A stretch of DNA of 46,087 nt from Neolecta irregularis DAH-3. Its lineage: Eukaryota. The position numbers and the translations under genes are program-made. The notes beneath the pieces were generated by a model. The model did not search any database, was not told the DNA's origin, and saw only the letters and a list, made by a program, of their open reading frames with translations. Location of the stretch: NCBI GenBank assembly GCA_001929475.1, contig LXFE01000124.1:1-46087 (forward strand), read 5' to 3'. Of the stretch, positions 677 to 43,311 are shown piece by piece. The first letter of the stretch is position 1. Each line of letters opens with the position of its first letter.

Positions 677-3600
677 ATGGACAACAGACCCGTCCAGCTC
701 CGCCGCAATCGTCTGGTCGCTATTGCTCCTCCAGATTCATCCCAGCCATACTCCTACACAGATCCCTGGCTGGACCGGTATACACTCTCGTAATACTATC
801 GTAATACAAGGCCCCATTTCACTGCCATGTCCGATCTCAAAATCGACGCCTTTTTGCGAGAGGCCATAGACTCGCTGATCCCCACCCCGAAATTCGACAA
901 GTCTTCCTTCTCCCAAGCCCTCAAAGACCACTCAAACCCCCGCGTCCTCGACATCCTCGTCGACGTCCTCGAATCCTTTGATACCTTTATCCACACACAC
1001 TCCTCCCCCCACCGCCCCCTCTTCCTCGACCTCGTCGTCTTCTTCATCGTATCCCCCTAGACTCCCCCGCTCACCCTAGAACAATGACGTCCTGTCCCTC
1101 GAATCCATCGCGGAACGCTTCTCCGCCGCCACAATCGCCTCCCTGAAATTCACCCCCGGCGTCGATTTCGCAAAAAGATACCGCGTCCAAAGAACAAACC
1201 TCCTCTACAAGCAAAAGAAATTCAACCTCATCCGCGAAGAATCAGAAGGCTACGCTAAATTAATCGTCGAGCTTTCAAATATGACCGCGTCCCCCGCTAT
1301 CGTCATCGACAGGATCCAGTCCCTAATCGGCTACTTTGATCTCAGCCCCGCAAGAGTCTTGGACATCCTCTTTGATGTATACTCTTCAAATCTGCTGGAA
1401 GGTTACTCCTTCTTTTGCGATCTGTGCAAATTGAGCCCCTGGTGGCCTGAAACTCTCGCCTCAGAATGGAAAGTAATGTCAAACGAACAGAGACTCGCTG
1501 CAATGCAATCGGGAATCGCACCCAGCCTAACAACCACGGGCTCCTCAGACAGAGCTAGCCAGATCATGGGCTTCAAGTTTCAAGGCTACCACGACTCGGA
1601 CGAGGAAACCCCAATGCGCCTATCCCTCCTCGCCGCCATTCTAATAAAAGAGGGCATGATTGATTTGAAAATTATCTACAAACACGTATCCTCCCAAGCT
1701 ATCTTTCTTACTCAAGTTGCAACCCCATCATTCCGCCATTCTCGAATTGCACCAGTCCTGGAAAATTGAAATGGCCCAAAAAGTTGGAAAGCCAGCCGTT
1801 TTATTCCTCCTCTTCGGCGCTAATCTCAGGCCGCCCCAGAGGCTAAACCCTCTTTTCAAAAGATTTCTCTGTTAAAATCACTCCTTGCCGTCGGCGCCTT
1901 GCCCGAATCCCTATTCATTCTTTCCCAGTACCCTTGGCTTCCCTCTTTTGATCCAGAAATTGCAGATTTAATGAACAAACTCATAAACCACACCATCGAA
2001 CCCTTATATTCCACTATCCGCCCACTAAACGGCCTCGAAATCTTTTCGCCCAAAAAACGCCCCACGGATAAGAAAGCTGGAGAATTACATCTAGTCGATC
2101 CCGCAAAACCTATTGGCTATCGAATTTCAAATCCCCTTCCAAAGGGCCCTAATGAGCGTTTCTTTTATCGGGAATGGGACCAAGAAATCCCAGTCATACA
2201 CACCTTTGAAGAATTCCACCGCGTAATAGTCCCCTTGCTGCGGTTCCCCGGCTGTCTTTTATCGCGAGACGTTTTCCTATTGCATAAACTCGTTCGATTG
2301 GGAATTCGAGAAATTTCTATACTCCCTACACAATCGCCGGTCTGGCAGGACCTCGTCCGCACATTCGTCCTCCCCAGTCTGTCGCTACAACCAACCAACG
2401 CCGGCTTGACAAACCTCGTTTGGGAATTACTAGCCAGCTTCCCGTATACCACCCGTTTCGGCATATACGGAACGTGGTCGTCCTCGTATAAATCCATTCC
2501 TGAACTAAAAATCCAATTCGCGCAAACGGAAAAAGAAGCAAAGGGCATATTAAAGCGGCTTTCAAAAGAAACAACACGACAAACAAGTCGTACTTTTCCT
2601 AAACTGATTCATTCGAATCCTATCGTGGTGTTTGGAGTCGTCCTCGGACAAATCCAGGCTTATGATAATCTCTCCGAAACAGTAGTCGAAGTAGCGAGAT
2701 ATCTCGGTCCAATGGGCTACGACGTCTTTGCTTATGTTTTGCTCTCGCTCCTTTCCACAGACGATAAGCGACGGTTGAAAGACGATGGAACGAATCTAGG
2801 ACACTGGCTACAAAGTCTTTCTTCGTTTGCAGGAAAAGTGTACAAACGCTATCCTGCAATGGACGTTTCTCTACCTCTAGAATACGTCGTCTGGCAACTA
2901 AAATCAGGCCAAACTTTCGACTTGGTCGTGTTGAAAGAATTGCTCATCAATTTGTCCGGCGTAGATAGTATCGTCAACTTGTCCGATGCGCAAATTAAAG
3001 ATGTCTCGGGCGGCGCCGTGCTCAAAGAAGTCTTTCTAAAAGACGTCTTTTGGAAAGAAAAAGATCGCTCAAAAAAGAGTAGTGCGCGGCTTTCTAAAGT
3101 ACTCCAAGGCCCCCTCGGACGAGAATTCGTTAAACTGCTGCCCATCGCTAGACAGACAGTCGTTTATCAGCAGGCTGACAGAATCTCCATTCCAAAGTTG
3201 CTCGCAAACTTGTTCGACGAGGTATACCACCTTCTTTCCAAGCTAATGCAAGTGCCATGAAATTATGATCTTGTTCGCGGATTTCATCGCGAATTCGCTC
3301 TGGGAAAATTACTCGGCTTTGGTCCCGAGTATTTCTACGTTTCTCGGAGAATGGGGCGTGGACCCGGAATCCGCTTTTTACTTTTTACGACCGGTGATGT
3401 TGGAGAATATCAGGGTATATCCAATCTTGACGATTCTTACGGTCTAGGAATGGGATACTAACGAGACTATTAGGATACAGCGCGAAGCGCTTCTTAAAAA
3501 GCGCGCAGAGAACGGGATTGAAGTCGAGGAGGGAGAGGATTCAGGTGGAGGAAAAGATGATGTTTTGATGGTGCGCTCCAGTTTCAACTTGCCGACAAAC

Positions 3601-6267
3601 AACAAGGAAAGCGGAAACGAGGGGTTTCCATTTCATCCTGCGTTGAAATCTTTCTTTCAAGATGCAGAAAAAGTGTTGCCTGAAGAGTTCAAGGAACTCA
3701 TTTCGCAAGTCTAAAAACATGCTTTTGTTAACCCTAGACCTGAATTTTTCATTCTGTTCTGGCAACTCGATATTTCGGATATTCACGTCCCGCTGGCTCG
3801 ATACGCCGCCGCTAAAGATAAACTTGCTTCCCAAATTCGAACTCTTGATGTTCCCGCACATCTTTTACCAGTATATTCTTGTTTCCGCATCATCTACCCA
3901 TGTAGACTATGACCGGCAGAGAAAAAGAGGACCTTGCAACAAAAAAGTCAGACTTCAATAGACAGCTTTTACTCCTCACAGATGAATCAAAACGTCTCGT
4001 ACGATCATTTGAAAAAACTCGGAAACGATTCAATTTGGAAAAAGATCACTGGTTTCGGTCAAAGTTGCCGGGCGAACGCATCAACGTTGCTGAATTCTTT
4101 ATTCAGCATTGTGTTTTCCCCAGAGCAAAATTCAGCCCAAAGGACGCTATTTTTGCTGCAAGGTTTATTAAACAGTTGCATGCCCTCGGAACTCCAAATT
4201 TCCCAACACTGGTTATTTACGACGATGTACCCTGCTACCATATCACATGCTCATCTCTAGATTTTCAATGAACGATTTGCTTCGATAATTCCTACATTCT
4301 CACAATACGAAGCGGACAATTACGGTCGCTTTGTAGCGGAATGTCTGGCCGAGTTGATGTTATGGCACAAGGATGAGTCTCTATTCAATAAAGAAGGTCG
4401 TGGAAAGAATCTTCCAGGGTTCTACAAGCGCGGACTAATCCGTATCGACGACAATGAACCCGCTGAAGAAAAAGCTAAGCGATTACTAACGTACGAAGAA
4501 TTTAGGGCGGTGATGTTTAAATGGTCAATGAAACTAGAAAAGGTACATTGTCATCTAGTTGTTTCCAACATCCTAGTCTGTAAAGGTTTGTCTTGCGTCG
4601 AAAGAATACATGCGTATTCGAAATACGCTAGTCATTCTGGGAAATATCGCTCACGTTTGGCCTGCAAATGACGAGCACGGAGATCATGTTATCACGTACA
4701 TGGAGGAACTCTTAGCCGAGGAAAAAGCGGACGATTCAACGGAGGAAAAGAGGCAGGATATCATTACGAGAGGCGATGGATGTCTGGGACTATTAAAGAA
4801 GAATAAAGACCGATGGATTCCAAGGGAGGAATTTTCTCTCGCAAGTATTTGGTGTGGTGACTTGTTGACGCCAGGGCAAGGATACCAAGAAAGGCGAATC
4901 AACAACGGATCGAAATGTGGAACTAAATCCAAGTGCAGCGGACTTTTGTCCCGGGTATAAATTGTTTTCTGCAATTCTGATATAGAGATCGGCTCAGCAA
5001 TTGTCTTTGGTATCCACGGAACCCTTTCGGCGACCTGCGAACGGCACGAATGGAACGGCATCCCGGACAACCACAATGCAAACTCCAGATATGAAACCAC
5101 CACCAACTGAACCACTTCGGTCTCGCGCTTTCAACGACCCTCGTAGAGATGACAACGGGAGTCCCTTGCGTCCGTCTAGACCCCACGACGAGTGGAAAAG
5201 AGACGAAGATCGACGCGGTCGACTTATCAACTCGAGAGAACCGTCACCCCGAAGAACTCCGAGATCTGACAGTCGAAATCGGTTGGATGGGCAAACGAGA
5301 CCTCGAGACGACACGGTGAGACTTTCTAGATCAGTGGGGGGTTCCCCACGGGGAGAACGAAGGTATTCAAAGGCTGAAAAATAATCCTAATAAAAGCGAT
5401 ACCATTGATCGACCACCTTCAAAACAACAAACGTCTGAAGAACTTGAAGCTTCTCTTCGAGCACAACTCAAGAATAAAGATTCGCCAACGTTATTCAAGG
5501 AACCACCGAGTCAGCCTCGTTTACACAACCAGCATCCCCGAGCTCCTACTAGTCGAATTCCGCCTTCGGGGCCGGCATCAACACGAAACGAGGCTCCTCC
5601 TATCCAGCCTAGGATAATGGGGACTCTGGGATCCAGTTATCGGCCTGAAACATGGGTGCCGGGTAGTCGGGATCACCCTAGTTGCGCGCTGCTTCTTCCC
5701 AAACCTGCCATTGAGGCGAGATTAAACGGCAAGGAAGTGTTTTGGGAGGGTAAAAGGGATGACCGAGAGAAGGAAGATCGATCCCGAGACGATCGACGAG
5801 ACGATAGGGATCGCAAAGATGATCGAAGAGAGTTTATGAAAGCGGACCCGATTCGACCGGATATAGCTATTCGTAGTAGACCACCAAGTCGGGGAGAAAA
5901 TCGAGAAACGCATCGATCGTCGCATCGAGATGATAAACGGGAAATTTCCCGAACTGGACAGCCGCGTAACCGGGATTTTCCACGCAGCGACCACCACCAC
6001 CGGACCGAGGAGAATTCCAGTCGTCGAGAGTCGCTGGTAGGAATATCAATTCGAGGCACGGGGGCGCCCCGGGACGAGCGAGAACGACGACGGGACGAGG
6101 ATCGACGGGAAGATTCGCGACACGAGACTATTATCCGGGAACCGCGACGTGAAGAACGGCGACACCACCGACGGAGGAGCAAGAGTCCTGAGCGACGGGA
6201 ACGGAGGAAACACGAGCGCGAGGAGGATCGACAGGGAGTATCAAAGAGGAGGAAAACAGATCGGTAA
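677..6267 (+). CDS. THO2: THO complex subunit 2 (Tho2/THOC2), multi-exon
   Basis: ATG 677; introns e.g. 778-810, 1049-1079, 3222-3252. Motifs LLYKQKKFNLIREESEGYAKL, LIGYFDLSPARVLDI, RLKDDGTNLGHWLQSLSSF and FFIQHCVFPRAKFSPKDAIFA, plus an R/D/E-rich tail ending at 6267. Some internal boundaries are uncertain. Confidence 0.93.
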
Positions 6268-6677
6268 AACTTGGTTTTTTTTCCGATCAAGTAGATACTA
6301 AATATAATATACCAATGGACGAGCTAAACAAACCGGTTTCGTGTGGAAACATCGGCCCAATCTTTGAAGGGCCGAGATTGGTTTCAGCTAAAGCTTAAAC
6401 AGGATGGCTCAGACATGGCGGTAGGAATCCAAAATCATGGCTCTCACCGCACATTTCCCTTTGAGCGCATTTCGAGCGGTTTGTAATGCGCTGACGGCCG
6501 GTAGCCAGTCGCAGGCCGTAAGCGGGATATGGAAATTAGCCGATAGCTGACGTCAGCGGCGCTAAGCGGACCAGGCACGACCGAAACACAAAAAGTGCAG
6601 GGGTTAGCCGAGCGGGGCACAACTAACTTGCTGGCCTCTGTTCTCTTAAACTGCCAGCACCCCGCTTGTCCTTCTCC

Positions 6678-8406
6678 ATGACCTTTTGCTATCTCAGCAG
6701 GTTGAGTGCGCACCTCGACTCCTTTTATTCTATTGAGCTTGTGCCGTTTCACCGATCTATCAAGGTACAGGCGTGTTCTACCATCGAGCAACTCGCGCAT
6801 CAGATCGAAGCAGATTTTGACGGCAGCGTGTGTGTCGCTTTTCTTCTAGACTACGAGGATGACGTTATTCTGAGGTGGCATGAGACTGTGGACGAGGTGT
6901 TGCCCACCAGAGGTGCAAGAGTCAAAGTCATAGATTTGCTGCGTACCATTGTTCCACCTGCATGACGTGCTAACGGTGAAAGATTCTACTCCCCTCAAAC
7001 GCAACATTCACATTTCACCCTTTCGTCCTTCTTCGAGTCCGTACCCCTTGACTCTGCAGCCAGCCTTGCTCGGCACCCCTGAAGATGCATTCCCTGCTTC
7101 AGCCTCAAATCTTGATTTAATATGTTTGAATACACTGTCATTAACTTCATTCGCCGGGTTTGCTCTTCGAAAGAATTTCCTAGAGGAACTAGTCTTTTAT
7201 TTGGATTATAAATCAAAATGTCCGAATGATTATTTATTTTCTCTTTATTTGCACGCAAATAGTCCGCTTCGTTTACCTGTTTTAATGTCTGAGATAACCA
7301 CTGTTGAAGGCGCATTTGAAATCGTCGAGCGAGGCGTCTTGAAACGTTGGGCAGTATCTGCATGGGAAGTATCAGAAGAAGGAAAATGGTTCTGGAAACT
7401 CAAATCTAGTCGTATTCCTCCTTTGTTTCAAGTTTGCTGACTCTGAGACTCGGATCTCTGTGCTTCAACGACTTTTGGACCCTCATCCTCAAGCGATCTC
7501 ACCTCTATACTCTTTACAACCTTTGCTTCCAACCCAAAAGTCGATTTTGAAGCTCGGGAAAAGGTTCTCGGAGTGATTTGCCGCAAATATTTCGGAGATA
7601 GTATCTCGGCCAACGGGTACCTGTTAAAAACAGCTCTCAGTTTATCCAAGCCCGAACGCATACGAAAGCAAATCCTTTTCGATCTTCTCAGTCGTCATAC
7701 CCCGTCTGTTGTTATCCCTTTTGAATCAGCAGGGGTTCCGACAATATCAGAAGAATTAGTCGCATTCGACGAAGATTACAGTGACCTTGAAGAAGAAGAA
7801 CCAATTCTCAATACCGACGACTCTGAAGGCTCATACATGAAAAATCTCTTACAACCCAAACCACTCATCTCAGACGAAGCAAGTTTTGTCTTTCAGCAGA
7901 ATGGCCTATCGCCACAAACACGCCGCGAAATGCGCAGGAAACATGGAAAACTCTGTAAAATTCTAGGGGAGCCGCCGCCAGAAGATAAACTCGATGTCCC
8001 ACGTCCGCAAAGCGTTGCAAGTTTCGAAACTAGCTCGAGTTTTGATAATATCTATGACAGAGTAGTCGGTCACTCGTCGAAATTGAAATCCGCACAAAAG
8101 GTTTATTCATTGTTAGGCGAGCATGTTTCACCGTCTATCGCCTTGCGCCAGGTCGCCCCGAAAGCCAGAAGCCGTGTGGAATCCGTGAAGCAAGTCAAGA
8201 AATTGTGTAAAGTGTTTGGAGAACCGCCTCCCCCGGGTCATTTCTACGTCTTTCATACTCCACCCGAGAGCCCACAAACTAGTGTTTCTGAAGAGGACTT
8301 TGGGAATGGTGGGAAATGGAATCAACGAAGACGGGCGGAGAAACTGCGGAATTTCTTCGGGACTGGGGTTCCCGCTGAGCCTGAACGTGTCGGATCAATA
8401 TGGTGA
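6678..8406 (+). CDS. Putative signalling protein: possible ubiquitin/RA-like N-terminus, divergent RGS-like domain, four KL..(F/L)G..P repeats
   Basis: Three ORF segments joined by introns 6943-6981 and 7412-7447. LTSFAGFALRKNFLEELVFYLDY..LFSLYLHANSPLRL resembles the RGS pattern F..F.....ENL.F....Y..YI...SP.ELN. The domain call is by eye. Confidence 0.6.
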
Positions 8407-8839
8407 TCCCATGACTCTTACTGTCATTTTCTAATTGTCCCTCTTTTCTCTTGATACTGATCTCTTTACATTACTATCTAGATTGACAAATTCCTTTCAT
8501 TTCCTTATTTAGTCGAGTTCATGATTGTCTTGGTATAATCGCGTCACGGCGGGCGTGATTGGAGGTAATTTAGACACCACGTAGCTTCTAAAATAATGTT
8601 CATTCTTAAATGTTTCGGAAATGAGCGCTGCTTGTCATCTTTCTACAATGCTGTGACAGACGAAATTACATGGCAACCAACTGGTCAAGGCTCACTCTAA
8701 TATGTCTCATATCCATTCATATCTTTTTTATGTACAGCTGACAGTTTGGGGGTACTAAATCCATGAGTAAGGAAAGTTCCGTGGCTACCCGACATTCTCG
8801 GGTTCCTGTCCACCTTTCTTCGCTTTCCCATCACCAGCA

Positions 8840-9716
8840 ATGAATCGCCTCCACTCCACCCTCACCTCCTGGCGCGAACGTATAGTGCCAATAAACCACG
8901 TCTCCTCTTTCGACAAGACCGGAACGATAACTCCCGAAGAATTCGTGCAAGCCGGAGATTATCTAGTATACAAATTCCCGACTTGGAAATGGTAGATTTG
9001 GTTTAAATTCAGTACTTTATCTCATCTACAGGGAAGCAGGCGATCCCGCTCGTAGACGAGAGTTTTTGCCGGTAGATAAGCAGTATCTGGTCACGAAACA
9101 TGGTAATTTGGCGTCTTATCTGTTATTAATTCTAGTTCCCTGCATCCCTGGTAGATCAAACAGCAATGACAACGAAGCAGAACAACTCGAAGACGACTGG
9201 TACACGACTCCTTCTATTCCCCATAGTTCCGAGTCCGTTCATGATATCGACTCCGTTTCAGAACATTCCAATCCCATACTATCAATCGAAGAAGAAGACG
9301 CTGAGCATGATCCTTCTGCTGCGCCTCACACTCTCCAAACCCGAACTTATGATCTTCATATCACGTATGATAAATGGTACCAGACACCACGTCTCTGGTT
9401 GTTTGGATGGTCAGAGACTCAGGTCCCTCTTGGACCCAACGATATTCTTCAAGATATACAGTCGGATTACGCATCAAAGACGGTTACTATCGAATCTTTT
9501 CCAAACATCGACATGCAGATGGCCACAGTCCATCCATGCCGTCATGCCGAGGTAATGTTATCTTTCATCAAACGTTCAGACAATGTTCGAGTGGATCAGT
9601 ATACATCCCCTTTTTGCACACCCTAACTAATGCAATCAAGGTATTTATTGCTGTTTTTAAAGTTTATGGCAAGTGTTATGCCTACTATTGAACATGATCA
9701 AACCATGGGGTTTTGA
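8840..9716 (+). CDS. ATG3: Autophagy E2-like conjugating enzyme Atg3
   Basis: [55 protein letters not shown], catalytic VHPCRHA and [15 protein letters not shown]; introns 8992-9031, 9103-9135, 9599-9640. Confidence 0.96.
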
Positions 9717-10196
9717 ACATTGGGCTTGCTTGGATTAATGGAGCTGTTTAAGTTTTTACTTGACTGTATGTCTTTTTCAATTCTTCTTGTGGGCTGTAGA
9801 TAGGCAATACATCTTTATTTCCTTTGATCGGAGTTGAGATTATCTTCGATTCGACATATATCATCAAGATTTTCTCTAGCTTTCATAATTATGACGCTAT
9901 CTCGTCGCTTAGCCTGTCTGATCAGTCAACTAGTTGGTGGTGTTTTGCAGTTGATGTTGGGTATAATGGATTTGTTTAATTATTATCAATCCAATATTCT
10001 ATCAAAGGCTTGGAGCAAGACATCGCTTACGACAAAATCATATCTCTAACAGTTCACACTATTATCTCTATATCACTGTTATGGCCCTCTAGGCCTCTTC
10101 ATGGCATATCAATAATGACAGACAGAGAGAATCATCCTTGTCATCTGCCATCGCCCGGTTCTTTGCAGATTGAAATGTGTTACATTCGGTTCTGAC

Positions 10197-12408
10197 TTAC
10201 CCCACTTCAATTCTATTATCACTAATAATCTCGATATTCCACTCATCCTCTCCAACCCGCTTTAGAAAATAGAAACCTTTCTCGACTCTTAATTTGCCGG
10301 AAAATAAACCCAGTCTTCCGTCTGAAATATTCTCTTCCCAGATTACCTCTTCATTTTCAGCCAGAAACTGCAGCCCGATAAACTCTCTTGAAAGCACTAT
10401 GATCCAAATTTCAGTCAGTCGCGAGACAGTAATGTGGACTTGTTGATTAGTCGTCGCTAAAGACTTCTTAAATTTTCCCTAGATCATCGTCAAAACTAAG
10501 TGATAATTGATACGATACCGCATCATAAGGCGCCAATTTTTCCAGTTTAATGAAAGAGTCGCTTTCTACTTGAATCTCATATCCCCCCTCTGTACTTTCA
10601 AAACAAGTCGGAATAACAATATATTTTCCTGGATCAAGTACTTTTAAAATGACTGCTTGTGAGGGTTGATAATTGCCGCTGTTCGCAAGACAATCACCAC
10701 TGCGTAACCTGAGTATGAGCCTGCAATATGCGAGAGCTAAATGTACCGATCAACACGCTCATCAGAAGACAAAAGATCAAGTCTAACCAATCCTTTGGCA
10801 GATGTAATAACAAGTGCAACAAACGAGACTGAAGTAATGGTAATTCTATATTGTTGATTTGTAATGAAAGTTGATGAGTTAATCTTCGAGGTTCCTTTCC
10901 AGAGAGCTATCTCCTTGCAACGAAATGCGGGCGAGGCTACATGTTCACAGTATATTGATTCCTGAGAATATAATGAAATAGTCCAGTTTGACGAGCTTGG
11001 AGACACAGGCACAAGGATTCGTGGTCCTGAAAAAGGCTTTAATCGACAAAATGTATAGAAGGAATCCAATTTATGTCCCTGGAAACAATTGTCAGTGCAA
11101 AGACGTTGGAAAGAAGTCTCACCTTCAGAATCGGATTCTTGAAATCATAAATCTTTGTTGATCCAAGAAAAACATCCATTGCAGTCCATGTGTCTGTCCA
11201 GGTAGAAATATGTTGACTTAATAAAACGCAAATCTCCCCATGCGAAGGGTGTACCACAAATTGTTGAGGTCCTGAGAAATGTTTTTGATAACGATGACGA
11301 AACTGGACAGGGTCATGGGAAATATAGAGAGTCTCAAATGATCTGTGTAGCTGTGTCCATTCGTGCAATTTAGAGCCACCCCATGGGTTCACCACCCTGA
11401 CTGTATTCTGATCAAATTCTACCATTTCATTAAGCAGGAAGGAATCGTGAAAGGTACCAGTTAGTGCAAAATTATGCTGGCCGATCTCTTCGTATTTATT
11501 GCTTCCAACAGTCATCACTCCCCCTCTTAGCCTAATTTCATCGAGATCTATCTCTGGCGAATGGAGCCTAACTATTTCAGGAATGTACCCGAGCAAAAGA
11601 AACAGATCGGTTGCAGAATTGCTCCCTTGAAAGTCATAGGAATTGCGTAACGCATGAAATGCTTTTTCAACAAGTATTGGACCAAGATGAGTCGACATTA
11701 CCGTCAATGGAGTTAAATCCAAGGAAACTGGAATATTGGGCGTAATGCTTAGCCTCCGGTACGTACCATTAAGGTAAATCTTGAATGTAAACGAAGACTT
11801 GTCCGCGAGAAGTATCGATGATAAATTCTACATGCTGAGCATTGCTCTGGTTCGAACGAGAAATACAGCAGCATTTAAAGGGCTCAGAGCTATCAAGGAA
11901 GCGACGAATGAACAATTTGAAAGCAGCATTTGCTTTATTTCCATTTGGTCTGGCCATATGTTTGAACCGTAAATCTCCCGTCCGTCAACCCAATGGTCGA
12001 TTTGATTTATCTGGTCTGGGGATAAAACAAGCTGATCTATTCTAACGTCAGTGGATCGCCGAAAGAACACCGGCCTACATTTCTGGAGATGGCTTCCCGT
12101 TCCACGGGGGAACTTTACAGCCAGATAATAAACTCCCTTTCAACAGGATTATTTCCTCGCTCTTCGAAAGGCCGTAGTTCCATTGTTTCAAACACTCCGC
12201 CTGCGCGAGGATTGATTTAATGTTTTGGGAGCGCTCCCTTCTGGATGAAGCTGTGGGTAACTGGGAGATATATATTTCCGATGCACGAAGAAGCGTTTTT
12301 ACGGCAAACGAGGGATTTGTAGAGGACGATGCAATATCTACAAGAGCCTGCTCAATAGATATACGAGGCAAATCGTTATATACATACCTTGGGATCTAGA
12401 GAAGCCAT
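10197..12408 (-). CDS. palB: Calpain-like cysteine protease PalB/Rim13 (calpain-7 type)
   Basis: Catalytic triad motifs Q..LSNCSFVASL, GQHNFAL and VRVVNPWG, plus LVEKAF..SYDFQGSNSATDLFLLLGYIPE. ATG 12408, first intron from 12387. The 3' end is approximate because GTAAGT at the stop may be another intron. Confidence 0.85.
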
Positions 12409-12470
12409 AAAATGTTTCTGTGGGGTGGTGGTATCATCCAAATCACATTTCTAATGCAACTTCTACTTAC

Positions 12471-14374
12471 ATGCCACCCCGCAAACGCACCATTATCGCG
12501 ATTTCCTCGGCTGAAGATGTCGCAACAGCTCCACCGCTAAAGAAATTGAGGACAACAACGACTCAGAAGAAGCTACCCGCAAAAAGGAGACCCCAGAGAA
12601 GAAAAGCCCAACCAACACTTGTAATTGATGAACTGAACGATGCTATCTCCTCCGACGGCGAAACTTCCATTCCGAGGGCAAGCCAGACAAATTCATCGCA
12701 ATATATTTTACGTCAGACGCTCAAGTTTCCTGATACTAATAACGTTGCTGCCACAGCCACGGACGGGATTCTGTGGACTGAGAGATATCGACCTGATCTA
12801 TCTACTCTAGCTATACATAAAAAGAAAATTGAGTCGGTACAGAAATGGATCGACATGCCTTCATCGGTATGTCTCTCGGGATGGATTGCTCCTCAATTAA
12901 TAGAAAATACTTATTCTATCTGGACCAGCAGGGTCCGGAAAAACTGCGACCGTCGAATCAATACTTCAGGGACAGGGCATCGCAAAACTTGAATGGGAGA
13001 ATCCAATGTTTCGAAGAGCTGCAGATGGTACAGTCTACTTTGTCATTAGAAGATCTTGATATCAAGAACATGAAAGTCTGATATCGAAGTTTCAAGAATT
13101 TTTAATCCGCGGGGAGAGATACCCAAATCTCATTACGGAAAAATACCCGCACACAGATCATCGAAAAGTCATCATTATCGAAGACATTCCCAATACCTTC
13201 TGCTCCCCCGACTCCAAACAATCTTTTAGGAAAATATTAAACCAATTCATCTATTCAACTCGTTCAAACTTCCCGCTAGTAATAATAATTTCAACTACTG
13301 AAACGCCAGATCAGTCAGATAATTTGACACCACATTCGCTCATTGGCTCCGAGATTCTTTCGAAATGTATGCATATAGAGTATAACTCTTGGCATACTTC
13401 GGACTAATGGAAGATTCAATCCAATAGCAAAGACATACATACAAAAGGCTCTTCTTCAAATAATTGAAAAGGAATCCTTAGGACTATTAGAGCCCGAATA
13501 TATCTCGGCAATCTCTGAATCAGGTGATATTAGATCTGCCATTAACACACTTCAATTTCAAACTATTGGCTCCCAAAAATCGAAACGGAAGTTTGCGAAG
13601 CGGAAAAAAGGGGAAAGAGTACTTCTCTCAACAATAGATCAAGAACTGGTGAGTTTTGCTGAACGTGATGTCAAAGTCGATGCATTCCACGCATTTGGGA
13701 AAATAGTTTACAATCGACGTATCCTCTTAACGCTAGAATAAGCTAAATTAAAAGGGATTGGAGACGATCCCGAGGATCCACCACATCCGCCTATGCAAGG
13801 GTCTTTACCAGACCACCTCAGTTCCTGGGCTCGAAGAAAAAGTAAAGTCGATATCGAAGTACCAACCCTAATTTGAGGAGGTCACCAACAAACAGGAATT
13901 GCTGTCGAATTTAACAGTGGACGTCTCAACCTTTCTGAACGGAATTTTTGAGAACTATGTATTGAGTTGCTCTACAATCGGAGAAATCAGTTCGACCCTT
14001 GAATCACTCTCTCAAACAGATTTTCCAATACCCTACAACTTGAGAGTATTCAATTTACTTTGTTCATGACTAACCTTAAGGCAATGGAGTCTCTCCTTGC
14101 TTCTTCTACCATTCGCTCAATATTGCTAAACCTTCCCTCCCCGGTGCTGCGCCTAAAAAAGGACAACAAGTTGTATTGGCCAGAAGTTTCGCGAGTTCTC
14201 AAACAACGAGACAATTCCTTGGAAGATTTGGGCGGGAAGCATTGGTCGACCTCCGAGAAATACGGGGGTCTCGGACGATTTGGACGGGAAAAACTGGGCA
14301 TCGTGAAGGCAGAGAAAAGAGTTATTGAAAAGGAAACAGAAGAAGAAATTTACGACTTGATTGAAGACTTTTAG
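12471..14374 (+). CDS. RAD17: DNA damage checkpoint clamp loader Rad17/Rad24
   Basis: LWTERYRPDLSTLAIHKKKIESVQKW, Walker A GPAGSGKTAT, IIIEDIPN, SESGDIRSAINTLQF and C-terminal DLIEDF; multiple short introns. Confidence 0.92.
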
Positions 14375-14501
14375 ATTGGTCGTTGGGTTTATTTCGGCTG
14401 GTACTTGCTTGGATGGGAAGAGCTATTGGTTGTCATTTATAATGCTCGGAAGAATTTAGGTATGATTCATAATAGCTAAATTTGTCCCATAGGGAAATCG
14501 A

Positions 14502-14596
14502 GACAGTATGTCCGAGTGGTTAAGGAGCAAGACTTGAATTACCTAAATGAAATCTTGTAGCGTTTCGCTGCGCAGGTTCAAATCCTGCTGCTGTCG
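14502..14596 (+). tRNA. tRNA-Ser(TGA) with ~13-nt intron (14539-14551)
   Basis: Acceptor stem GACAGTA/TGCTGTC, D-loop TCCGAGTGGTTAAGG, anticodon stem CAAGA/TCTTG, long variable arm, GGTTCAAATCC T-loop and downstream T-run terminator. Confidence 0.93.
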
Positions 14597-14788
14597 ACAT
14601 TTTTTTCTTCTGCCTTGTAGGATCTTGCGTTCGCTGGCTTGTTCGAAATGCTGCGATTGATTGTCTATGGGAGGATATGAATAGTGCTTGGCACAAGGAC
14701 TGAAGGCAAGATTGTTCAACTGGAAGTCCTCGCATCAGCCACCACCAGTACCTCTTGATTAAAGGGCGCAGCACCTCTGATTAATACA

Positions 14789-16156: not shown

Positions 16157-16247
16157 TTCATTTTTTGCTACAATCTTTACAAGTTGCTATCGATATCATC
16201 TATATATAGACAACCAATAATTCTTTCTTTTCCAATCCCTCGTCTTG

Positions 16248-17340: not shown

Positions 17341-17581
17341 CAGCTGCACTTACGTACTGATACTAAAGCCGTATGCCCTTTTCTATCACTATTCCTGTTA
17401 TTGCCCTCTCTTACCGAATGGCCTAAAAGAACTTCCACATCCCTACTTCTAATTTCTTTTCCAGATGCCTTATCCCTGTATTTAGAAGCTACTGGTTGTA
17501 TTACAATGGAAATATTAATGTGTCATTTGGAGACGACTCCAGGGTTCGTTGTTAGATAACCGTTCATGGTCCCTTCTCCCC

Positions 17582-18235: not shown

Positions 18236-18522
18236 TCAAATGAAACTTCATGTCAATATTGAAGAGCATCTGGCAAATTCTAAACCTTGGCCGCCTAAAT
18301 TATTGGACGTGGCACGAGCATTCTACTTCTGTCATAAAACATTATGAAGAGTAGACAATCATTTCTGTGACCTGTGTGGTAAGCTTACAAATATTTTATA
18401 GCATCAGCCCTCGTATTATAATTGCTTTGATGGCGTTAATGGAATAGTTACTATACTGCAGATTTCCCCCGCCTGTGAGGAGGTAGGAAACTGGGACGAG
18501 AATACCTCTAGCAAAAGGATAT

Positions 18523-26443: not shown

Positions 26444-26758
26444 GTACTTCCCTGCTTCATAGATTGTAGAAAGCAATCTTCCAACTTTTTTGTAAATTTA
26501 AATGCTTAAAAAGAATTGTAAGAGGTCCGAGTGTAATAGGCTTGCAGTTTTTAGCCAGGAGATAGCCCAGGATTATCTTCCTCTGTGAAGTCGAGTTAGA
26601 AAAAAAGAGCGATTTTGTGCAATTGAGAAAATCTTCTATTGTGTAAGAAAAAGTATATCCTGGCGGTACCCTCAAATTTCTCATTCATATCACTCACGCT
26701 GTGTCACGTTTAATTCGAAAATCGAAGATCTTGTCTACTCAATTAACCCCTCACTAAA

Positions 26759-28639: not shown

Positions 28640-29582
28640 ATGTCTGATTCCCAGCTTAGCTTTGAGGATATATACACTGATGAGGTGAGAAACTTATTCT
28701 AAATGATGAACATTTTAGGAAGACAACGTCATTTTCAATCAACAAGACGTCGTCGTTGTTCCAATACAATCCATTGATTCCTATTCTCGACAAAACAGCA
28801 TATTTACTGACCTTGATTGCACGCAGCTGTTTGCAGAGATGAATACTCTTCTCGCGGAGAACGAAACTATGAGGATCAAATGTCGAGATCTCGAACAGGC
28901 CTTTAATGTTGAAAAGGGATATACTCATATTCTTCGTGAATCAAACAGGGTCTTTCACATGAGTTTTCAGGATGCCAAACTTTCCGAAAATAACTGCCAA
29001 TTCGAGCTTTCCGAAATGAAAGCAAAACTTAATCTTGCAATTACCGAACGTGAAGAGCTTGTCGCTGAGATGGGCAGCTTTGGAAATTTCTCCGGTGCGC
29101 TGAAGGATATGATATTTGAAGTCACTACTTTGAATCGAGAGCTCTCCGATCAGGTTGAAGGCTTGCAGTTTCAACTTGTTGCCCGCGGGCAATTGATGGA
29201 AGTAATGGACCTAAATCATATGAAAACAACGAAAGAATTGGAAATTTCAAACAAGAAGCTAAAAGAAATGGAAAATGTCCCTTACATGAAAGAATCGGAT
29301 GTTAAATCATTGGTCGGAATTCTTGAAGATCATATTCGAGAGATCGTCAGTTTGGTTCCGGAGACTCCAACTTGTAGTGCGCACCGTTTGAATCCACAAC
29401 TTGGTCAACCAGATGATCAACCTTCGGTACAGAATGGACTACAGGACTTGTCGAGAAAATTAGTTTGTTCTCTCTGGACATTGGCCTGTAGTTTTGCGGG
29501 TGAGAAGAGAGAATGGTTACGGCGTGAATTGGAAGGCCTCGAGATGGGGATCGAAGCGGCCTGGGGGAACATGGATGAGTAG
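28640..29582 (+). CDS. Uncharacterised coiled-coil protein
   Basis: ATG 28640 and intron 28685-28718 join to the 247-aa ORF, which has E/K/L-rich heptad-like segments. Confidence 0.6.
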
Positions 29583-32569: not shown

Positions 32570-33950
32570 TCAAGTAGAGTGAACGGAAATCGTATCCTGT
32601 ATTCGGCTACTTCTGCTCTCCACATCACTTTGATCGTTGGGATGTATACTCTTGTTGCTTTTGCGCTCTTGCCCCTTCGCCTCCCTCGCAACCCACCATC
32701 TTCCCAAACCAGTCAGGATTTGTCCAATGACAAGTTGTTCACCCTGATAGAGAACTAAAGGTATCGTAAGTTTACCACGAATAATCTGACTGAATCCCTG
32801 GTATTGGGAATGGATTAGAGGAATTCCGACTGCAGGAGTTTTTCCGGCGCCGCAATAGGCTATTGCGATGGCCTGTTTCTTCGAGAAGCCGGCTGCTAGA
32901 GCTAAGTACACGCAGAGGATGGTAAAGACTAGATAAAGGGCGATATTAGTAAGAAGCATAAACAAGATGCTGTTGGAGGAAAGGGACTGAAAGGCTCCTG
33001 AGGAGAAGGCGTTGGAGAATGTGGCCCTTTACTGATCAGTTTGAAAGATAAAAGTCAGTACCAGATTAGAAGGAGAAGCATGAATGAGCCGACTTTGTTT
33101 AGGTAAAGTTTCTGAAATACGGTGTCGACTTTTTTCGGATTTATTGTTCTGAGGAATTGGCCAACGATCTGTTTGTCGTTATAAGGAAAAGCAAGGATAG
33201 CTACCAGGGCACCAATAACGCAAGTTCCCAATTGTTGCAGGACCCTGGCGTAGATTTTCCCTATACTACCTTTTGGTTTTCCGGCCTCAAATCCTGTGCT
33301 TTCGCGAAGATACAACTGCAATAGAGCCGGGGTGATGAATGTTCCCAAGACGTTTCCCAGACAGGCTTCGATAAGTGCGGCAGCATCATCTCCACCCGCT
33401 TTTTTGGTCATAATTACATTCGAAGCGATGGCAGTTGCAGTGCAACCGAGAATAATGAATCCTGTCAAGATATAGAAATCGATTTTGGAGGTATAAAGGA
33501 CCAAGTAAGCGATCGACAAATTCACAACGGAGAAGAGGACAAAGGAGGTTAGTTGAGTAACGAGATGAAGCTTGTAGTTTAAGGCATTCTGGAGGAGGGC
33601 TTGAGAAGAACTTGAGGCGCCTGGTGGTGTTAGCCATGACTCCCAGTATATTGTAGAATAAAATAGAAAAATAAACAATTGGGCATCGAGAAGTGCTTGT
33701 TCGGTTTGATACTTTATCCCCAGCGCTCTCTGCCGGCAGAGGGTTATGGAAAAACAGACACACCCGAAAGCAGAAAGATCATCGCGACAGCTCCATATTC
33801 GATGGTATACTCACTACGTACGCTTCCTCCTGTTTTCCCGACGTCTGGGAATGCATACGCAAGGCCTATCAATACACCCAGAGTAACTAAAAACCACTGG
33901 TCGAGCAGAAAGAGCAACCCAGATTTTGCATAGTCTGTCCATCGCGGCAT
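32570..33950 (-). CDS. RCH1: SLC10A7/SBF-like solute carrier, Rch1 (regulator of calcium homeostasis) type
   Basis: LDQWFLVTLGVLIGLAYAFPDVGKTGGSVRSEYTIEYGAVAMIFLLSG, ATAIASNVIMTKKAGGD..A.IE..LGNVLGTFITPAL, YCGAGKTPAVGIPL and IPLVLYQGEQL; long intron 33763-33621. Confidence 0.88.
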
Positions 33951-34003
33951 GGAGGATCAGCCGTGTGCAGAGTAGGCCGTAGTGGTGGTGGGGTGCATGA
34001 GCA

Positions 34004-35921: not shown

Positions 35922-37024
35922 ATGGACTTGGCAGTTACTCCTACTATCCATATGCCAATCAAGTGGACTCTTGAAGGCACACTTAAACAAATCAACAAGA
36001 TATATCCATATTTGAATGCTCCTGAAGCCATTGAAAAGTTCTTTGAGTCTTATACATGGGTGTACTACCATATGCCCCAAAATAGCAAATGGACTTTTGC
36101 TGCAGAAAGATTATTGACTGAAGCCAGAGAGATGGTATGATTGAGAATATTGGATTATATGCCAACTTATAGATTGAGAAGGATGATCCTGACTTTTATT
36201 CCTTGCTCTGCTCAGTAACGCAAGACAATACACAACATTTACCTTTATCGGAGCTTATCGACATCTCAGTTCTTCCCGTCTTTGTTAATGAAGTCATTGA
36301 TTTGGAAACAGTTAGTATTATTAGTGATCCTATTTCTGACAGAGAATGTACTCCTACTATCTCCCTTCCCTTTGGAGTTCAAGTTAAAGAGGAGCCTATA
36401 TCTCCCAAATTCCCAGAAAAGGACATGCACGAGCCTGTACCTTCTGCTGAATCTACTCAAATAAACATCAAGCTTGAAGAGAAGGATACAACTCAGTTGA
36501 ATACTACCATCGTTGAGCCTCTCAAACAGCCTGGTCCGGATCAAAATGGATCGTCTTCTCCAAGCATACCAGAGTATAGTAATTGTGCTATGAATGATGA
36601 TTCCAAGGCCATAGGGACAAATGATTTACCACATATTGCAGACTCTCCTTCAAGAGCTGTATATTATCAACCACCGTCTTCGACGCAAGCATACCCTCCA
36701 ACTCTATACCATCAACCCCAAATCTATCCTTACCACCAAGAAGAGTTCGACCATAACCATCAATTCGCTACTGGCCATAAGTATGGACAAATGGGTTTCA
36801 TGCAGATGAATTTTCAAGAGGCGGCTATGTATAACCCTCATTACTATCACCCTTCAATAAGCTCCCTTAATCCCAACGCTCCTTCTCACCCTTATCAATA
36901 TCAAGGGCATTTATCTAAAGTCAACTCTCCTATACCTATTCTTAAAAAAGCTAAAAGCCTGCCTAGTGTTTTAATGAAAACTGTCGAGGACAATACTTTG
37001 CATGGGAAGAAATTATGTAGTTGA
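35922..37024 (+). CDS. Orphan protein with P/Q/Y-rich low-complexity C-terminal half
   Basis: Two ORFs joined in frame by intron 36135-36172 (GTATGA..TAG); no recognisable domain; start and end uncertain. Confidence 0.45.
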
Positions 37025-39183: not shown

Positions 39184-39822
39184 CTAATGGAAAGTTGCGG
39201 GTCGTTTGGCAGAGAAGATTGTCTTTGATTTGTTGATACGGTGGGGCAGAGGGAATTTCAAGTTGCTCTCCAATAATTGTCGGATATAAGGTCGCTTGAT
39301 GTCTGCGGACTTTTTAACTTCGACCACTTGGAGAATCTAATGCCCAGTTAGTTTGAAATGTTGAAGAATCATTTACGTTGATAGAGCTAAATCGAGCACG
39401 ATGTCGTGAGGCCATATCTTGATACAATGCCTTGACGGCATCTGTTCGACTCATTTCTCGGTATTCTTTGTACATGTTGTGGGTCCCGGATCGAGAGTCA
39501 TACCGGATGAATATACCATAGGTCTTGACCTTGAGAGGTCGCTTTTCGGAGATCTAACATCTTTGTCAAACCTACGATCATCTTTTAGACAGTTGAACAT
39601 ACCACATTGATCGAGATAATTTCGCCATTGCTCTTCTTGACCTTTCTGAGTTTCTTGAGGAAGTACCAGAATCGAGACTTGGCAATGACTTGATTGGTAG
39701 CAAAAAGTCGCATCCGAAAGAGCTTTGGGACTAGAGAATTTAGATTCGATGTACAGAAGAAAAGCAATACCTGGCTCGCTCTCTGAGGGCAAGCGCCGGC
39801 CAATAACTTGGTATTCGTGCAT
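39184..39822 (-). CDS. RPL20: 60S ribosomal protein L20 (eL20/L18a)
   Basis: [75 protein letters not shown]; three coding introns. Confidence 0.97.
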
Positions 39823-41129
39823 GACTCTTGTAGGTGACGATTTGGTAAACTGATACCAGGCGAGTCGTGGATGACTTGAGGGTGGTGAGGAGGTGACTGC
39901 TGTCGACCGCTAATTTCCACAATCATAATTTACGGCATCTCTACCAGCTGGCTGTTACGACAACGGCTCTTAAGCGGAAGCCTTTTATCGCTTACCATCG
40001 ATTGAGTTGGTCTTTGTCTATGACTACTGCTCAGTTCTTTTTGGATAGAAACCGTATTAAGCTGTAGTTATTCTTCTAACCTCTGAAGACCTCAGCACTA
40101 CCTCAAATGCCCTACTTCACAGTTGATTATATTTTGATTGTGAAAAAGCAAAAAGATGATACATAACTAAGAGGAGAATTGATCTTAATGGGTGCTTGAA
40201 GAAAGAAATGTTCTTTGAGAAATATCCGCGTAAAATTCCATGGACGGATGATTGAGGTGAAGCACTAAGTATGAGCTATTTTAACTTGTCCAGAAATATT
40301 GAGATGGTCAAGGGGAAAATCTTGGGTCAAGGAAAGGAGTTTTAGTCATGAGGCCATGTTTTCTCCAGTTCTTGACTATTGATAATGGAGTGAATCCCAA
40401 CTAGTACTGTCTCATAGAAAGTTTGCAGTCCATAGCCTCCTTCGACATCTAAGGTTGACCAGGAGATGATGAGCGAGGATTGTGGCTATGTTGACCACTT
40501 AATTATCGTAGCAAATCTCTGGGTAAATAAAATGTTGAACATTCTTTGTCTGAGACACCTTATTTGGGTTTTTTGAGAGAATCCCTTAAGATTCTGAAAC
40601 GTCCAACGACTTAAAGGCATGCCCGGAATGATCCATATACAGTTTCGGCAAAAATGGTGGAGTGAATAATATAGACCCGATATTGGATCAGGTTGAAGTT
40701 GTGGGGGCTCGAAGTTACCCACAGTAATAAAATCCACCGGGTTGCCACCGTCACCACATGACCGTTGGGGGTAACTAAAGGAACTGTCATGGGAAGCCGC
40801 CAGTGTCATGACCTCGCTTATATGGGGCTATCACAGGAATTTCCAGACAGAAAGTGTAAGAACATGAGTTCCCTGGCGAGCGCTTAGTGAAAGAGTGATA
40901 TCGCTTGATTTCTAAAGCCCCGATGCTCTTCAAGGAATCGGCAGTTTTATCTAATATAAAATCATTTATAGAAGATTATATATAAGGCTCAAATATTAGT
41001 CCTCGTGGCGAACGCCTTCGCATCATCTTGGTTTAAGATTGGCGCGAAAGATTGAGTACTCCACTAATCGATATATAAAACATTCCGACTAATCATCAGC
41101 TCTCTTCGGAACATCGCAAAGTTAAACCT

Positions 41130-43311
41130 ATGTCAACATTCAACGGCTATCTACGCGAGTTTCCAGATATAGCTAGCATGTGCCGATGACTTTTTGGATT
41201 ATACTCATCTCTTATAGTCGATTTCTTTCGTGATCGACAACCACACCCTCCTCCGAAAGCCCTTTTCCTCTCACATGTTCATACAGATCATCTACGAGGA
41301 CTTGATACGTACAAGAATAATTCATTCGTTTACTGCTCAAAGGCGACAAAGGAGGTAGGTTTCTTGGAAAGAGCTGTTTTAGAATTTCCCTAGTTACTTT
41401 TAAAGTTACAGACAAAACATGATAGAGTAAATCTCGCTGAGGGAGTGCTAGAGAAGCCAAATTTTCGGTACCGTAATTTGAGTTATCGGAAGGACCTTCT
41501 CGTATACGCTAACGTTAATCCTTCCAATTGACGATATAGAGGGTACTGCCGATGGAAACGCCAACAGTAATTGATATTGGAGGGCCAAAGATTCGTATAA
41601 CTTTATTTGATGTGAATTTGCTCCATCTTTCTTTCTGATATGTCAGGCAAATCATTGTCCCGGAGCCTGTATGTTTTTGATTGAAGGTAACGGGAAGGCG
41701 GTATTGTATACCGGTGATTTTAGAGGTAAGTCTCAATATTCGCTTGGATTAATAGACTAGCGGAAACCTGGTGGAGGAATTCACTCGCCCGAAATGCTGC
41801 CCTGCTCCCGTATCTGAATTCTAAAGTCAAAAAGTTGGATTGCATATACCTTGATACAACGTTTGCGTCCAAAGATCCTCGCTGCATGCACTTTATTTCC
41901 AAGGTATCTCTTAACAACATAGGTAGAGCATTTCTAACTGAAAGACAGAATCTGCGATGTCTTTAGTGGAAGAAATGGCAAAATATCCAGACGACACTTT
42001 CTTCCATTTCAATGCCTGGACTCTTGGTTACGAGGAACTTTGGCTAGCAGTAGCAAATGCTTTCGACTTCAAGGTCACAGTCCGATTAAATATCATTAAT
42101 CATATAGATTCACGTGGATCGATATCGCAATAGTTTGTTCCATTCAATTCGTAGTCCCGATTCATATAACCACGGGCCATTTCTTGCTGGGTATAGTTAC
42201 ATCAATAACCAAAAACCAAACGCAAATCAAGACATAGAGGGTATGCTTACACAAAATCCAACGACTAGGTTTCATAGTTGTGAAGCAACCGGCTCATGTC
42301 CTGTTCGCGACGATGCTAAGAAACAGAAAAGGCTCATTCAAATTGTTCCATATGTCACGTGGAGCGAACATAATATCAGTTTGCGAAGAATTGTTGCTGT
42401 CAGAAAAGGCGGTTTAGAAGAGACTGCGAATATTTTGAGTGAATTTGCTAAGGAAAGGGTTATTCCAGAGAGAGAGGAAGTCCAGAAAGTTGCGAAAAGA
42501 TTAAGCATTGACTTGAGTCCTGAAAGGAAAGCGATTCTTTGGGAAAAGTTGGATGATTTGGATGGGACTGTGATCAAGGAACCCGGCCATACTGTCCTAC
42601 GAGGAACCAAGCTCGAAGAAGACGGAGAGGACCTACCATCGATTATCGTATAACGATATCAACCAGCTGGCTGATATACAGTACATCCCTTATAGTCGGC
42701 ATTCATCACTCTCAGAACTTCAAGATTTCGTCGGCCTTTTCCGTCCAACAACTGTCTTTCCCTGCGTCGCAGACAACGAACGTCTCTTTTACCTGGACAT
42801 GAAAGATTGTTTCGCAAATTATGTTTCCGGAAATTTCACCTTCTTTAACGAAATGCTTCTTTGTCAGCACAGAGACTCGGTCGTCGACAGTCGCATAATT
42901 CTCGAAAGGGTCCTTCAAGAAAAGTGGGCTTACGATGACTTGGATATCGATACCGATGGCGAAGAACTTTCCATAGAATCGTTGGAACTTGAAACAAGTG
43001 AAACGCAAACCTCTTTCTCGAAAGTCCTTGCTATGGCCGCCGAACCAGCTTTGAAGATCCAACAGTTGAAGAAAGAGCTAGCGGATGACATGCCAATTGA
43101 AGACACCACTAAGGATCCCACTGGAAGTTACATTAGTAGCAATTCCCAAACGCAACGAAGTGGAGAGGATACAAGTCAAGAATCGGTCTTCTACTATGAA
43201 AGTGAGACCGCTGATCCTGAAAAAGTCGAATTTTGGAAGGAATGGATCGAACGTGGCTGCGAAATTAAAATGAGCTGCGTTAAATGGCCAACAGTCGAAG
43301 TCGAACTGTGA
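41130..43311 (+). CDS. DCLRE1C: Artemis/DCLRE1C-type metallo-beta-lactamase beta-CASP nuclease
   Basis: [76 protein letters not shown] and [11 protein letters not shown]; the first intron is GC-AG (41176-41217). Confidence 0.9.

Follow-up and report, generated by a model that had tools for sequence, protein, structure and literature searches.

Very short introns with relaxed splice signals and regular internal spacing in a 46-kb window of the Neolecta irregularis genome

How does a fungal spliceosome recognize introns that are only some 36 nucleotides (nt) long and whose ends follow the usual splice-site consensus loosely? The question is raised by contig LXFE01000124.1 of Neolecta irregularis DAH-3 (assembly GCA_001929475.1), of which positions 1 to 46,087 form the window analyzed here, eukaryotic DNA with a G+C content of 41-50% that is densely packed with genes. 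A sequence-only reading of this window had proposed that its introns carry degenerate splice signals and may be defined largely by a narrow distance from donor to branch point to AG. Our analysis suggests that these introns, in an intron-rich fungus whose genome is compact, are probably of the ordinary spliceosomal U2 type, with their relaxed signals compensated by spacing.

We assembled a curated set of 60 introns from about 15 genes, all in this single window. For 14 of them the basis is contigs of a sequencing run, X2, from which GT..AG stretches present in the DNA run X1 are missing; 27 rest on homologue alignments or on scores against hidden Markov models (HMMs), 10 rest on deposited models or have one ambiguous end, and nine rest on reading-frame logic, the weakest tier. 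X2 is labelled 'DNA?', and none of the runs is recorded as RNA; we treated X2 as cDNA-like evidence because its contigs show the GT..AG skips. Contigs of both runs were compared with window positions 7350-27349. Those of X1 are colinear with the window and lack the skips, and among the 15 of 40 X2 joints that were listed at least 11 are GT..AG joints, none of which is found in X1, with AAG acceptors at 9640, 21819 and 22094; three further X2 piece boundaries fit introns (acceptor 7447, donor 15157 and, on the minus strand, donor 23456). Because frame logic misses in-frame, stop-free introns, the intron count is a lower bound. Deposited DAH-3 proteins match window genes at 100% (P0001 for GCDH, P0121 for THO2, P0168 for Artemis), and P0169 is the deposited model of the Rad17-like gene. 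A de novo gene finder combining codon bias with splice matrices served as a draft only, and nine of its introns were kept; codon bias was weak, true introns scored 4-11 bits, and genes were broken or chained across intergenic DNA. Its introns 15150-15195, 23343-23416, 17478-17532 and 19280-19359/19366-19436 were mis-calls. Six finder introns in the gene at 10197-12420 (minus strand) were left out of the set, as were 33726-33763, 45048-45095, 23193-23232 and 25337-25649.

The introns are short and uniform in length. Their median is 36 nt, and 58/60 fall between 31 and 45 nt, in agreement with the earlier claim that almost all are 31-48 nt, the other two being 49 and 157 nt long; with the 157-nt intron excluded, the mean is 36.8 nt with a standard deviation of 3.7. 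All 60 end in AG, and 58 begin with GT and two with GC. Within the donor, +3 is A in 53/60 introns (1.17 bit) and +4 is T in 36/60, and the following positions are close to uninformative (+5, G in 19/60, 0.05 bit; +6, T in 26/60, 0.15 bit). The earlier claim of little selectivity from +3 to +6 is thus borne out at +5 and +6, fails at +3 and is weak at +4. At the acceptor, the -3 base is T in 27 introns, A in 18, C in 14 and G in one (0.29 bit), so that a purine precedes the AG (RAG) in 19/60, or 32%. The use of A matches local composition (18/60 against a share of 0.31 at positions -12 to -4; p = 1.0), as expected if -3 were unselective, whereas G is avoided (1/60 against 0.133 expected, p = 0.002; against 9/56 unused intronic AGs, Fisher p = 0.007), and to that extent the claim of little selectivity at -3 does not hold.

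For Fusarium, the available text of PMC5677156 gives a pyrimidine at -3 in 93% of introns (RAG in 5.69% of 2022) and G at +5 in 93%; it also quotes second-hand, for five other fungi, a pyrimidine at -3 in 89%, i.e. about 11% RAG when pooled. In this 60-intron sample AAG and GAG acceptors are thus commoner than in those fungi (binomial p = 1.4e-5 against 11% and 5e-10 against 5.69%), also when only the RNA and homology tiers are counted (11/41; p = 0.0039 and 1.3e-5). By tier, RAG makes up 4/14 introns with RNA evidence, 7/27 with homology, 5/10 with deposited or ambiguous ends and 3/9 with frame logic, and in the four deposited gene models AAG ends 10/30 introns. Measured against the canonical fungal consensus (GTRNGT...YAG, about 90%, a yardstick from the same partial source), the set departs both at +5, with its 19 Gs, and at -3, where 41/60 have a pyrimidine. 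All nine AAG acceptors named by the sequence-only reading were recovered, eight through RNA, homology or frame evidence and the ninth, its position recounted from 6981 to 6982, through frame and signals only; further AAG acceptors lie at 1716, 5396, 13066, 13413, 13754, 14080, 41944 and 45591, and in the minus-strand intron 33027-33061. The single GAG acceptor listed in that reading was retained as well, as were its five unusual donors, on uneven evidence. An X2 piece begins at 7448, immediately after intron 7412-7447 (+, 36 nt, GTATTC..GAG), the joint itself not being among those listed, and of nine frame-keeping alternatives there four end at GAG 7447, five at downstream AAGs and none at a YAG. 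The donors GTGGGA (27188) and GTGCTC (27834) are set by alignment of GCDH homologues and GTTTGT (21786) by an X2 joint; GTCACA (42074) has the deposited model and the usual 34-nt length behind it, and GCATGT (41176) the frame alternatives.

For GCDH (26759-28394, plus strand), 11 introns in 1.6 kb had been claimed. Eleven introns were indeed found within its 1636 nt, and the resulting model aligns without gaps at every junction with 17 fungal and bacterial homologues. The deposited P0001 is a translation with nine introns. It carries a 13-residue insert that is absent from 17/17 homologues and corresponds to an in-frame 39-nt intron, 27333-27371 (GTAACC..AAG), treated as coding in the deposited model, and it ends in V-C. 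There 16/17 homologues show A-F, and so does the 11-intron model, owing to intron 28351-28382 (32 nt, GTATGT..CAG), which the deposited model lacks. Intron 27188-27222 (35 nt, GTGGGA..AAG) ends in CAGAAG (27217-27222), the one NAGNAG tandem acceptor case. Here the CAG three bases upstream is unused, and the homologues fit the distal AAG because the extra residue that CAG would add occurs in none of the 17. Both P0001 and the alignment place the remaining introns at 26823-26857 (35 nt, GTAAGT..TAG), 26931-26964 (34 nt, GTATAT..CAG), 27033-27069 (37 nt, GTATTA..CAG), 27411-27449 (39 nt, GTATTG..TAG), 27623-27658 (36 nt, GTATGT..TAG), 27834-27869 (36 nt, GTGCTC..AAG), 28028-28067 (40 nt, GTATTG..TAG) and 28209-28248 (40 nt, GTATAC..CAG). 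The alignment thus sets the three AAG acceptors of this gene, at 27222, 27371 and 27869.

In THO2 (677-6267, plus strand), alternative junctions were scored against an HMM built from 18 homologues. Intron 3222-3252 (31 nt, GTATAC..AAG) gains 65.6 bits over the deposited 3099-3252 and 28 over the next alternative. Replacing the deposited 144-nt intron 1686-1829 by the pair 1686-1716 (31 nt, GTATCC..AAG; +13 bits over the next alternative) and 1798-1829 (32 nt, GTTTTA..CAG) gains 20 bits, and the GC-AG intron 3705-3737 (33 nt, GCAAGT..TAG) gains 16.4 bits over the deposited 3687-3737 and closes a 6-residue gap. For intron 778-810 of the deposited P0121 (33 nt, GTATAC..AAG), the acceptor at 810 is common to all three frame-keeping alternatives enumerated within 48 nt on either side. 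Three introns have an ambiguous end and a YAG whichever is taken: 1049-1079 (31 nt, GTATCC..TAG; the HMM favors donor 1037 by 2-4 bits and the signal favors 1049), 3871-3905 (35 nt, GTATAT..TAG; deposited, with donor 3850 scoring 4 bits more) and 4955-4997 (43 nt, GTATAA..CAG; deposited, with an equal HMM score for the 31-nt 4955-4985, TAG). Deposited model and HMM agree on 3415-3447 (33 nt, GTATAT..TAG; top HMM score), 4227-4260 (34 nt, GTACCC..TAG) and 4543-4576 (34 nt, GTACAT..TAG), and the deposited intron 5363-5396 (34 nt, GTATTC..AAG) lies in a low-complexity part without homology. Two other candidates were rejected, 4543-4585 at a cost of 10 bits and 4955-4987 for breaking the frame. 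Between a GC-rich gene end and the start of THO2, positions 380-660 hold a long AT-rich stretch of degenerate short tandem units (TCTATATCATTCTATA-like).

What else do these introns share, given end signals looser than in other fungi? Branch points were predicted by seeking the best motif 5-14 nt from the intron end and counting scores of at least 3 bits as clear; a YTNAY-type motif (5.96 bits) was found in 46/60 introns and was weak in 14/60. In 44 of the 46, the predicted branch A is 24-33 nt downstream of the donor, and in 34 it precedes the 3' end by 6-8 nt, which supports the narrow geometry that had been proposed. An unused AG occurs 3-5 nt past the branch A in 8/46 introns, and also in 27188-27222 with its weak motif, and none of the 46 has a skipped AG at 6 nt or more. 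In 27188-27222, 27333-27371 and the minus-strand intron 33027-33061, a CAG or TAG 3-4 nt after the branch is skipped and an AAG is used, the skipped site in 27333-27371 being a TAG. The last of these belongs to an SBF-like transporter gene (35 nt, GTACTG..AAG, unused CAG four bases upstream), where Pfam profile positions continue from 205 to 207 across the intron; the other frame-keeping pairs are one of 53 nt, with a GC donor and the same AAG, and others of at least 92 nt, and the AAG stands because 33027-33061 is the sole short frame-keeping GT-AG pair. We then wrote the spacing as a rule: a GTA donor, a branch motif at 24-33 nt and the first AG at 6-13 nt, provided it is not GAG. This rule recovered 31/46 validated introns in six genes with 9 false candidates, and widening the branch window to 15-60 nt or 15-150 nt raised the false candidates to 55 and 170. 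Spacing can thus hold most of the discriminating information in silico.

Several features mark the introns as probably of the U2 type. Their termini are GT-AG or GC-AG in 60/60, removal from RNA is indicated by the 11 X2 joints and three piece boundaries (14/60 introns), and removing the introns restores an open homologous frame, as judged from the GCDH alignment, the THO2 HMM and the Pfam continuity of the SBF-like gene. U12-type introns have the donor RTATCCTT and a branch sequence TCCTTAAC 10-15 nt from the 3' end. We rejected this class: GTATCC donors number only 3/60, about as many as GTAT and composition predict, and in 1686-1716, the one inspected, 6 nt separate the branch-like A from the intron end. 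A fused branch and 3' motif like that of intron-poor eukaryotes was rejected as well, given 13 different branch pentamers in 46 introns at distances of 6-13 nt.

Taken together, the donor is G-T-A and mostly continues with T, +5 and +6 being nearly uninformative, and a predicted YTNAY branch motif follows 24-33 nt downstream. The two ends would be paired across the intron, i.e. by intron definition, with constant spacing offsetting the weak information of the donor. The first AG at a distance of 6 nt or more (mostly 6-8 nt) from the predicted branch A serves as the 3' site, AGs at 3-5 nt being bypassed even if CAG or TAG; before the AG, A, C and T are used roughly at their frequency in the sequence and G is avoided. 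That the first AG lying far enough past the branch point is chosen is an established rule and not a new mechanism. Since a distance of 6-8 nt leaves no space for a pyrimidine tract, the AG may be selected at the second catalytic step through its reach from the branch point, which would explain the lost pyrimidine preference at -3. In the accessible part of PMC10711555, branch-proximal and non-YAG 3' sites become active in Saccharomyces cerevisiae without Prp18, which implies that the choice at -3 depends on second-step factors. By this analogy, the relaxed -3 preference most likely arises at second-step AG choice.

Several results weigh against spacing-compensated recognition. The spacing rule fails on 15/46 true introns, the branch motif is weak in 14/60 and the branch points are predicted, and the 157-nt intron means that the spacing is not obligatory. 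The absence of skipped AGs at 6 nt or more follows in part from the search itself, because motifs were sought only 5-14 nt from the intron end. The spliced coding sequences hold 5 decoys that satisfy the rule, where codon shuffles give 9.3 ± 3.2, with equally low counts in 10% of the shuffles. Finally, the set comes from a single 46-kb window, 19/60 introns belong to the tiers based on frame logic or on deposited models and ambiguous ends, and the gene finder picked an AAG (15150-15195) where an X2 contig shows a TAG (15157-15190).

Some of these points fit an alternative that we consider unlikely, though worth keeping in mind: an unchanged fungal spliceosome, with no measuring of length and with AAG as a weaker acceptor that all fungi tolerate, in a lineage whose small population has let weak sites pile up by drift in very short AT-rich introns, the lengths reflecting deletion bias down to the physical minimum. 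The avoidance of G at -3 and the persistence of A at +3 do indicate that normal preferences remain, but A at -3 is not depleted relative to composition, and the 0.05 bit at +5 is far from the Fusarium pattern, with G in 93% of donors. RAG sites do occur at 6-11% in other fungi (available text of PMC5677156), but drift does not readily account for three introns in which a YAG 3-4 nt past the branch is bypassed for an AAG. Drift without length measurement would also agree with the splicing of the 157-nt intron and with decoys that are not significantly depleted from spliced coding sequences; the elimination of most false candidates by spacing in silico speaks against it.

Spacing-compensated recognition by ordinary U2-type machinery also has a stronger version, which we regard as doubtful and slightly less probable than drift. 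The spliceosome of this lineage would have lost its read-outs of the +5 G and the -3 pyrimidine, both nearly universal elsewhere, and would measure introns as if with a ruler, with the branch about 28 nt past the donor and the AG 6-8 nt past the branch. The cause would lie in changed pairing of U1 or U6 together with changes either in factors of the second step (Prp18, Slu7 and the Prp8 alpha-finger) or in the small U2AF subunit. If true, these introns would be a fungal counterpart to the geometry-defined tiny introns of ciliates. It is very unlikely that the window is rich in AAG acceptors and weak donors by chance while genome-wide figures resemble those of other fungi; one window with 60 introns from about 15 genes would allow such an accident, but RAG sites are present in at least nine genes, their share is similar in the RNA tier (4/14), the homology tier (7/27) and the deposited models (10/30), and the excess over 11% has p = 1.4e-5. 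Least probable of all is that the true sites are canonical and the AAG, GAG and odd donors are misplaced ends, for although the earlier reading was made without tools, deposited models hold errors and the finder erred once in just this way, three AAGs are direct X2 joints, the GAG is an X2 piece boundary, four AAGs are set either by aligned homologues or by gains of 13-65 bits in HMM score, and one is set by Pfam profile continuity.

Ciliate and nucleomorph introns are ultra-short, about 15-25 nt. Like those described here, they have very narrow lengths near the physical minimum, suggesting a constraint on length (available part of PMC5014332), whereas here the host is a fungus, the minimum is 31 nt and a clear branch motif is retained. 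Other intron-rich fungi (Cryptococcus, fission yeast, Fusarium) also have short introns, taken to be recognized across the intron. Like the present ones, these are numerous in each gene, have GT-AG or, seldom, GC-AG termini, carry a CTRAY-like motif near the 3' end and lack a pyrimidine tract from branch to AG. The differences lie in length (a median of 36 nt here, against a mean of 63-65 nt in the Cryptococcus text available and 42-529 nt in Fusarium), in G at +5 (32% against 93% in Fusarium) and in A or G at -3 (32% against 5.7% in Fusarium and about 11% in five fungi), the Fusarium and five-fungi figures being those in the accessible text of PMC5677156. Yarrowia, Giardia and Trichomonas share a very short, nearly fixed distance from branch to AG, but as described in the available part of Irimia and Roy 2008 (PMC2483917) they are intron-poor with a long, strongly conserved fused motif, where the present genes are intron-rich with a degenerate YTNAY. 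Saccharomyces cerevisiae lacking Prp18 likewise uses 3' sites that are close to the branch or have no pyrimidine at -3, but it is a mutant and also uses non-AG sites, whereas here AG is found in 60/60, GAG is rare and the state is the normal one (part of PMC10711555 available). Searches combining the genus with intron terms found no description of Neolecta intron lengths or splice motifs in the literature covered. The main text of the genome paper, in the form available, reports 14.5 Mb and 5,546 genes (PMC5309816) and contains none of the strings intron, splic, RNA-seq and transcriptom, its supplements being outside the search; Lim et al. 2021, in its accessible part, merely lists the genome in its data (PMC8476143).

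The remaining introns are spread over the rest of the window, in which Pfam profiles on single exons name THO2, ATG3, the Rad17-like gene, a PRK-family kinase, a CCCH zinc-finger gene, an ATP-synthase alpha/beta family gene, an acyl-CoA dehydrogenase, the SBF-like transporter and an Artemis-type nuclease. Unless stated otherwise they lie on the plus strand. A gene fragment at the window start has intron 173-207 (35 nt, GTATGT..CAG; frame logic and signals), and an unnamed gene (6678-8406) has 6943-6982 (40 nt, GTACCA..AAG), placed by frame logic, with CTAAC 9 nt from its end and two YAG alternatives in frame. In ATG3, X2 joints mark 8992-9031 (40 nt, GTAGAT..CAG), 9103-9135 (33 nt, GTAATT..TAG) and 9599-9640 (42 nt, GTATAC..AAG). 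The deposited Rad17-like model has six introns, four of them with AAG, and the frame model agrees on five: 12867-12903 (37 nt, GTATGT..TAG), 13028-13066 (39 nt, GTACAG..AAG), 13380-13413 (34 nt, GTATAA..AAG), 13859-13895 (37 nt, GTACCA..CAG) and 14046-14080 (35 nt, GTATTC..AAG). For 13719-13754 (36 nt, GTATCC..AAG) the frame model instead picks 13763. A Rad17 homologue profile was abandoned as its homologues were too distant (E = 2.5e-8 and worse), and the gene rests on the deposited P0169 and frame models.

Further along, an X2 joint marks 14936-14970 (35 nt, GTAATC..TAG), and an X2 piece stops at 15156, with intron 15157-15190 (34 nt, GTACGC..TAG) read from the sequence. The CCCH zinc-finger gene holds the sole long intron, 19280-19436 (157 nt, GTACGT..CAG; X2 joint). 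In the ATPase-family gene, X2 joints mark 20696-20740 (45 nt, GTACAA..TAG), 20847-20891 (45 nt, GTACGT..TAG), 21127-21165 (39 nt, GTATTG..CAG; in frame and stop-free), 21611-21648 (38 nt, GTATAT..TAG), 21786-21819 (34 nt, GTTTGT..AAG) and 22055-22094 (40 nt, GTATCT..AAG). Upstream of this gene there is a DNA-level length variant at 20035-20108, where 26 other letters replace 72 nt in one X1 contig, with an additional A at 20104. On the minus strand, 23416-23456 (41 nt, GTATCA..TAG) was read from the sequence where an X2 piece begins at 23457. Frame logic places 28685-28718 (34 nt, GTGAGA..TAG), 36135-36172 (38 nt, GTATGA..TAG), 45555-45591 (37 nt, GTATGT..AAG) and 45871-45908 (38 nt, GTATGT..CAG), as well as two minus-strand introns, 39337-39376 (40 nt, GTAAAT..TAG) and 39554-39602 (49 nt, GTATGT..TAG), in a gene (39184-39926, minus strand) whose translation resembles ribosomal protein eL20/L18a and whose first exon or exons were not found by frame-based modelling.

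The deposited Artemis protein, P0168, is wrong in the stretch 41130-41670: an internal Met serves as its start, and about 130 N-terminal residues are missing, the metal-binding HxHxDH motif among them. An open model of 628 residues requires four more introns upstream of its start: 41176-41217 (42 nt, GCATGT..TAG), 41355-41393 (39 nt, GTAGGT..TAG), 41502-41539 (38 nt, GTATAC..TAG) and 41612-41646 (35 nt, GTGAAT..CAG), the last leading into the P0168 start. At the first of these, a GC-AG intron, a GC donor is used by each of the 11 alternatives that stay in frame with the ATG at 41130; exon 2 matches solved Artemis chains in the PDB weakly (E = 0.055-0.15), in a register with room for about 14 residues before it. 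P0168 itself gives 41726-41760 (35 nt, GTAAGT..TAG), 41904-41944 (41 nt, GTATCT..AAG), 42074-42107 (34 nt, GTCACA..TAG) and 42648-42681 (34 nt, GTATAA..CAG). Other donors also keep the frame at 42074-42107, and PDB searches with the two exons flanking it returned chance matches only, giving no homology check of this junction.

Some features of the window lie outside the intron set. Rfam finds tRNA genes at 14502-14596 (+, 95 nt) and 18523-18625 (-, 103 nt), with lengths that could accommodate introns, and ARAGORN in its default mode found no tRNA in the window. A colinear X2 contig of 565 nt (16346-16910), in which no convincing reading frame was found, may be an untranslated region or a non-coding transcript. 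Single-letter differences between X2 and the window at 11897, 15760, 21956, 25836, 25967 and 26477, with none in X1, may reflect variation between strains or alleles, errors or editing. Around 24750-25100 the depth of X1 contigs rises abruptly from about 400 to 9,272 and reaches up to about 50,000 at individual places, and both runs show many loose ends and odd joints, which points to a high-copy repeat.

These findings bear on how the genome is annotated and on what it may teach about splicing. Three of the four deposited gene models checked have errors at tiny introns (two missed in GCDH, at least three wrong junctions in THO2, an absent N-terminus in Artemis), which implies that gene finders trained on other fungi will mis-annotate the Neolecta genome. 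Retention of in-frame, stop-free 39-nt introns such as 21127-21165 and 27333-27371 would be missed by translation-based surveillance. If the pattern holds genome-wide, N. irregularis would be a natural case of unusually low splice-site information combined with unusually regular spacing, one that makes testable both the share of geometry in intron recognition and which parts of the spliceosome set the preferences at -3 and +5.

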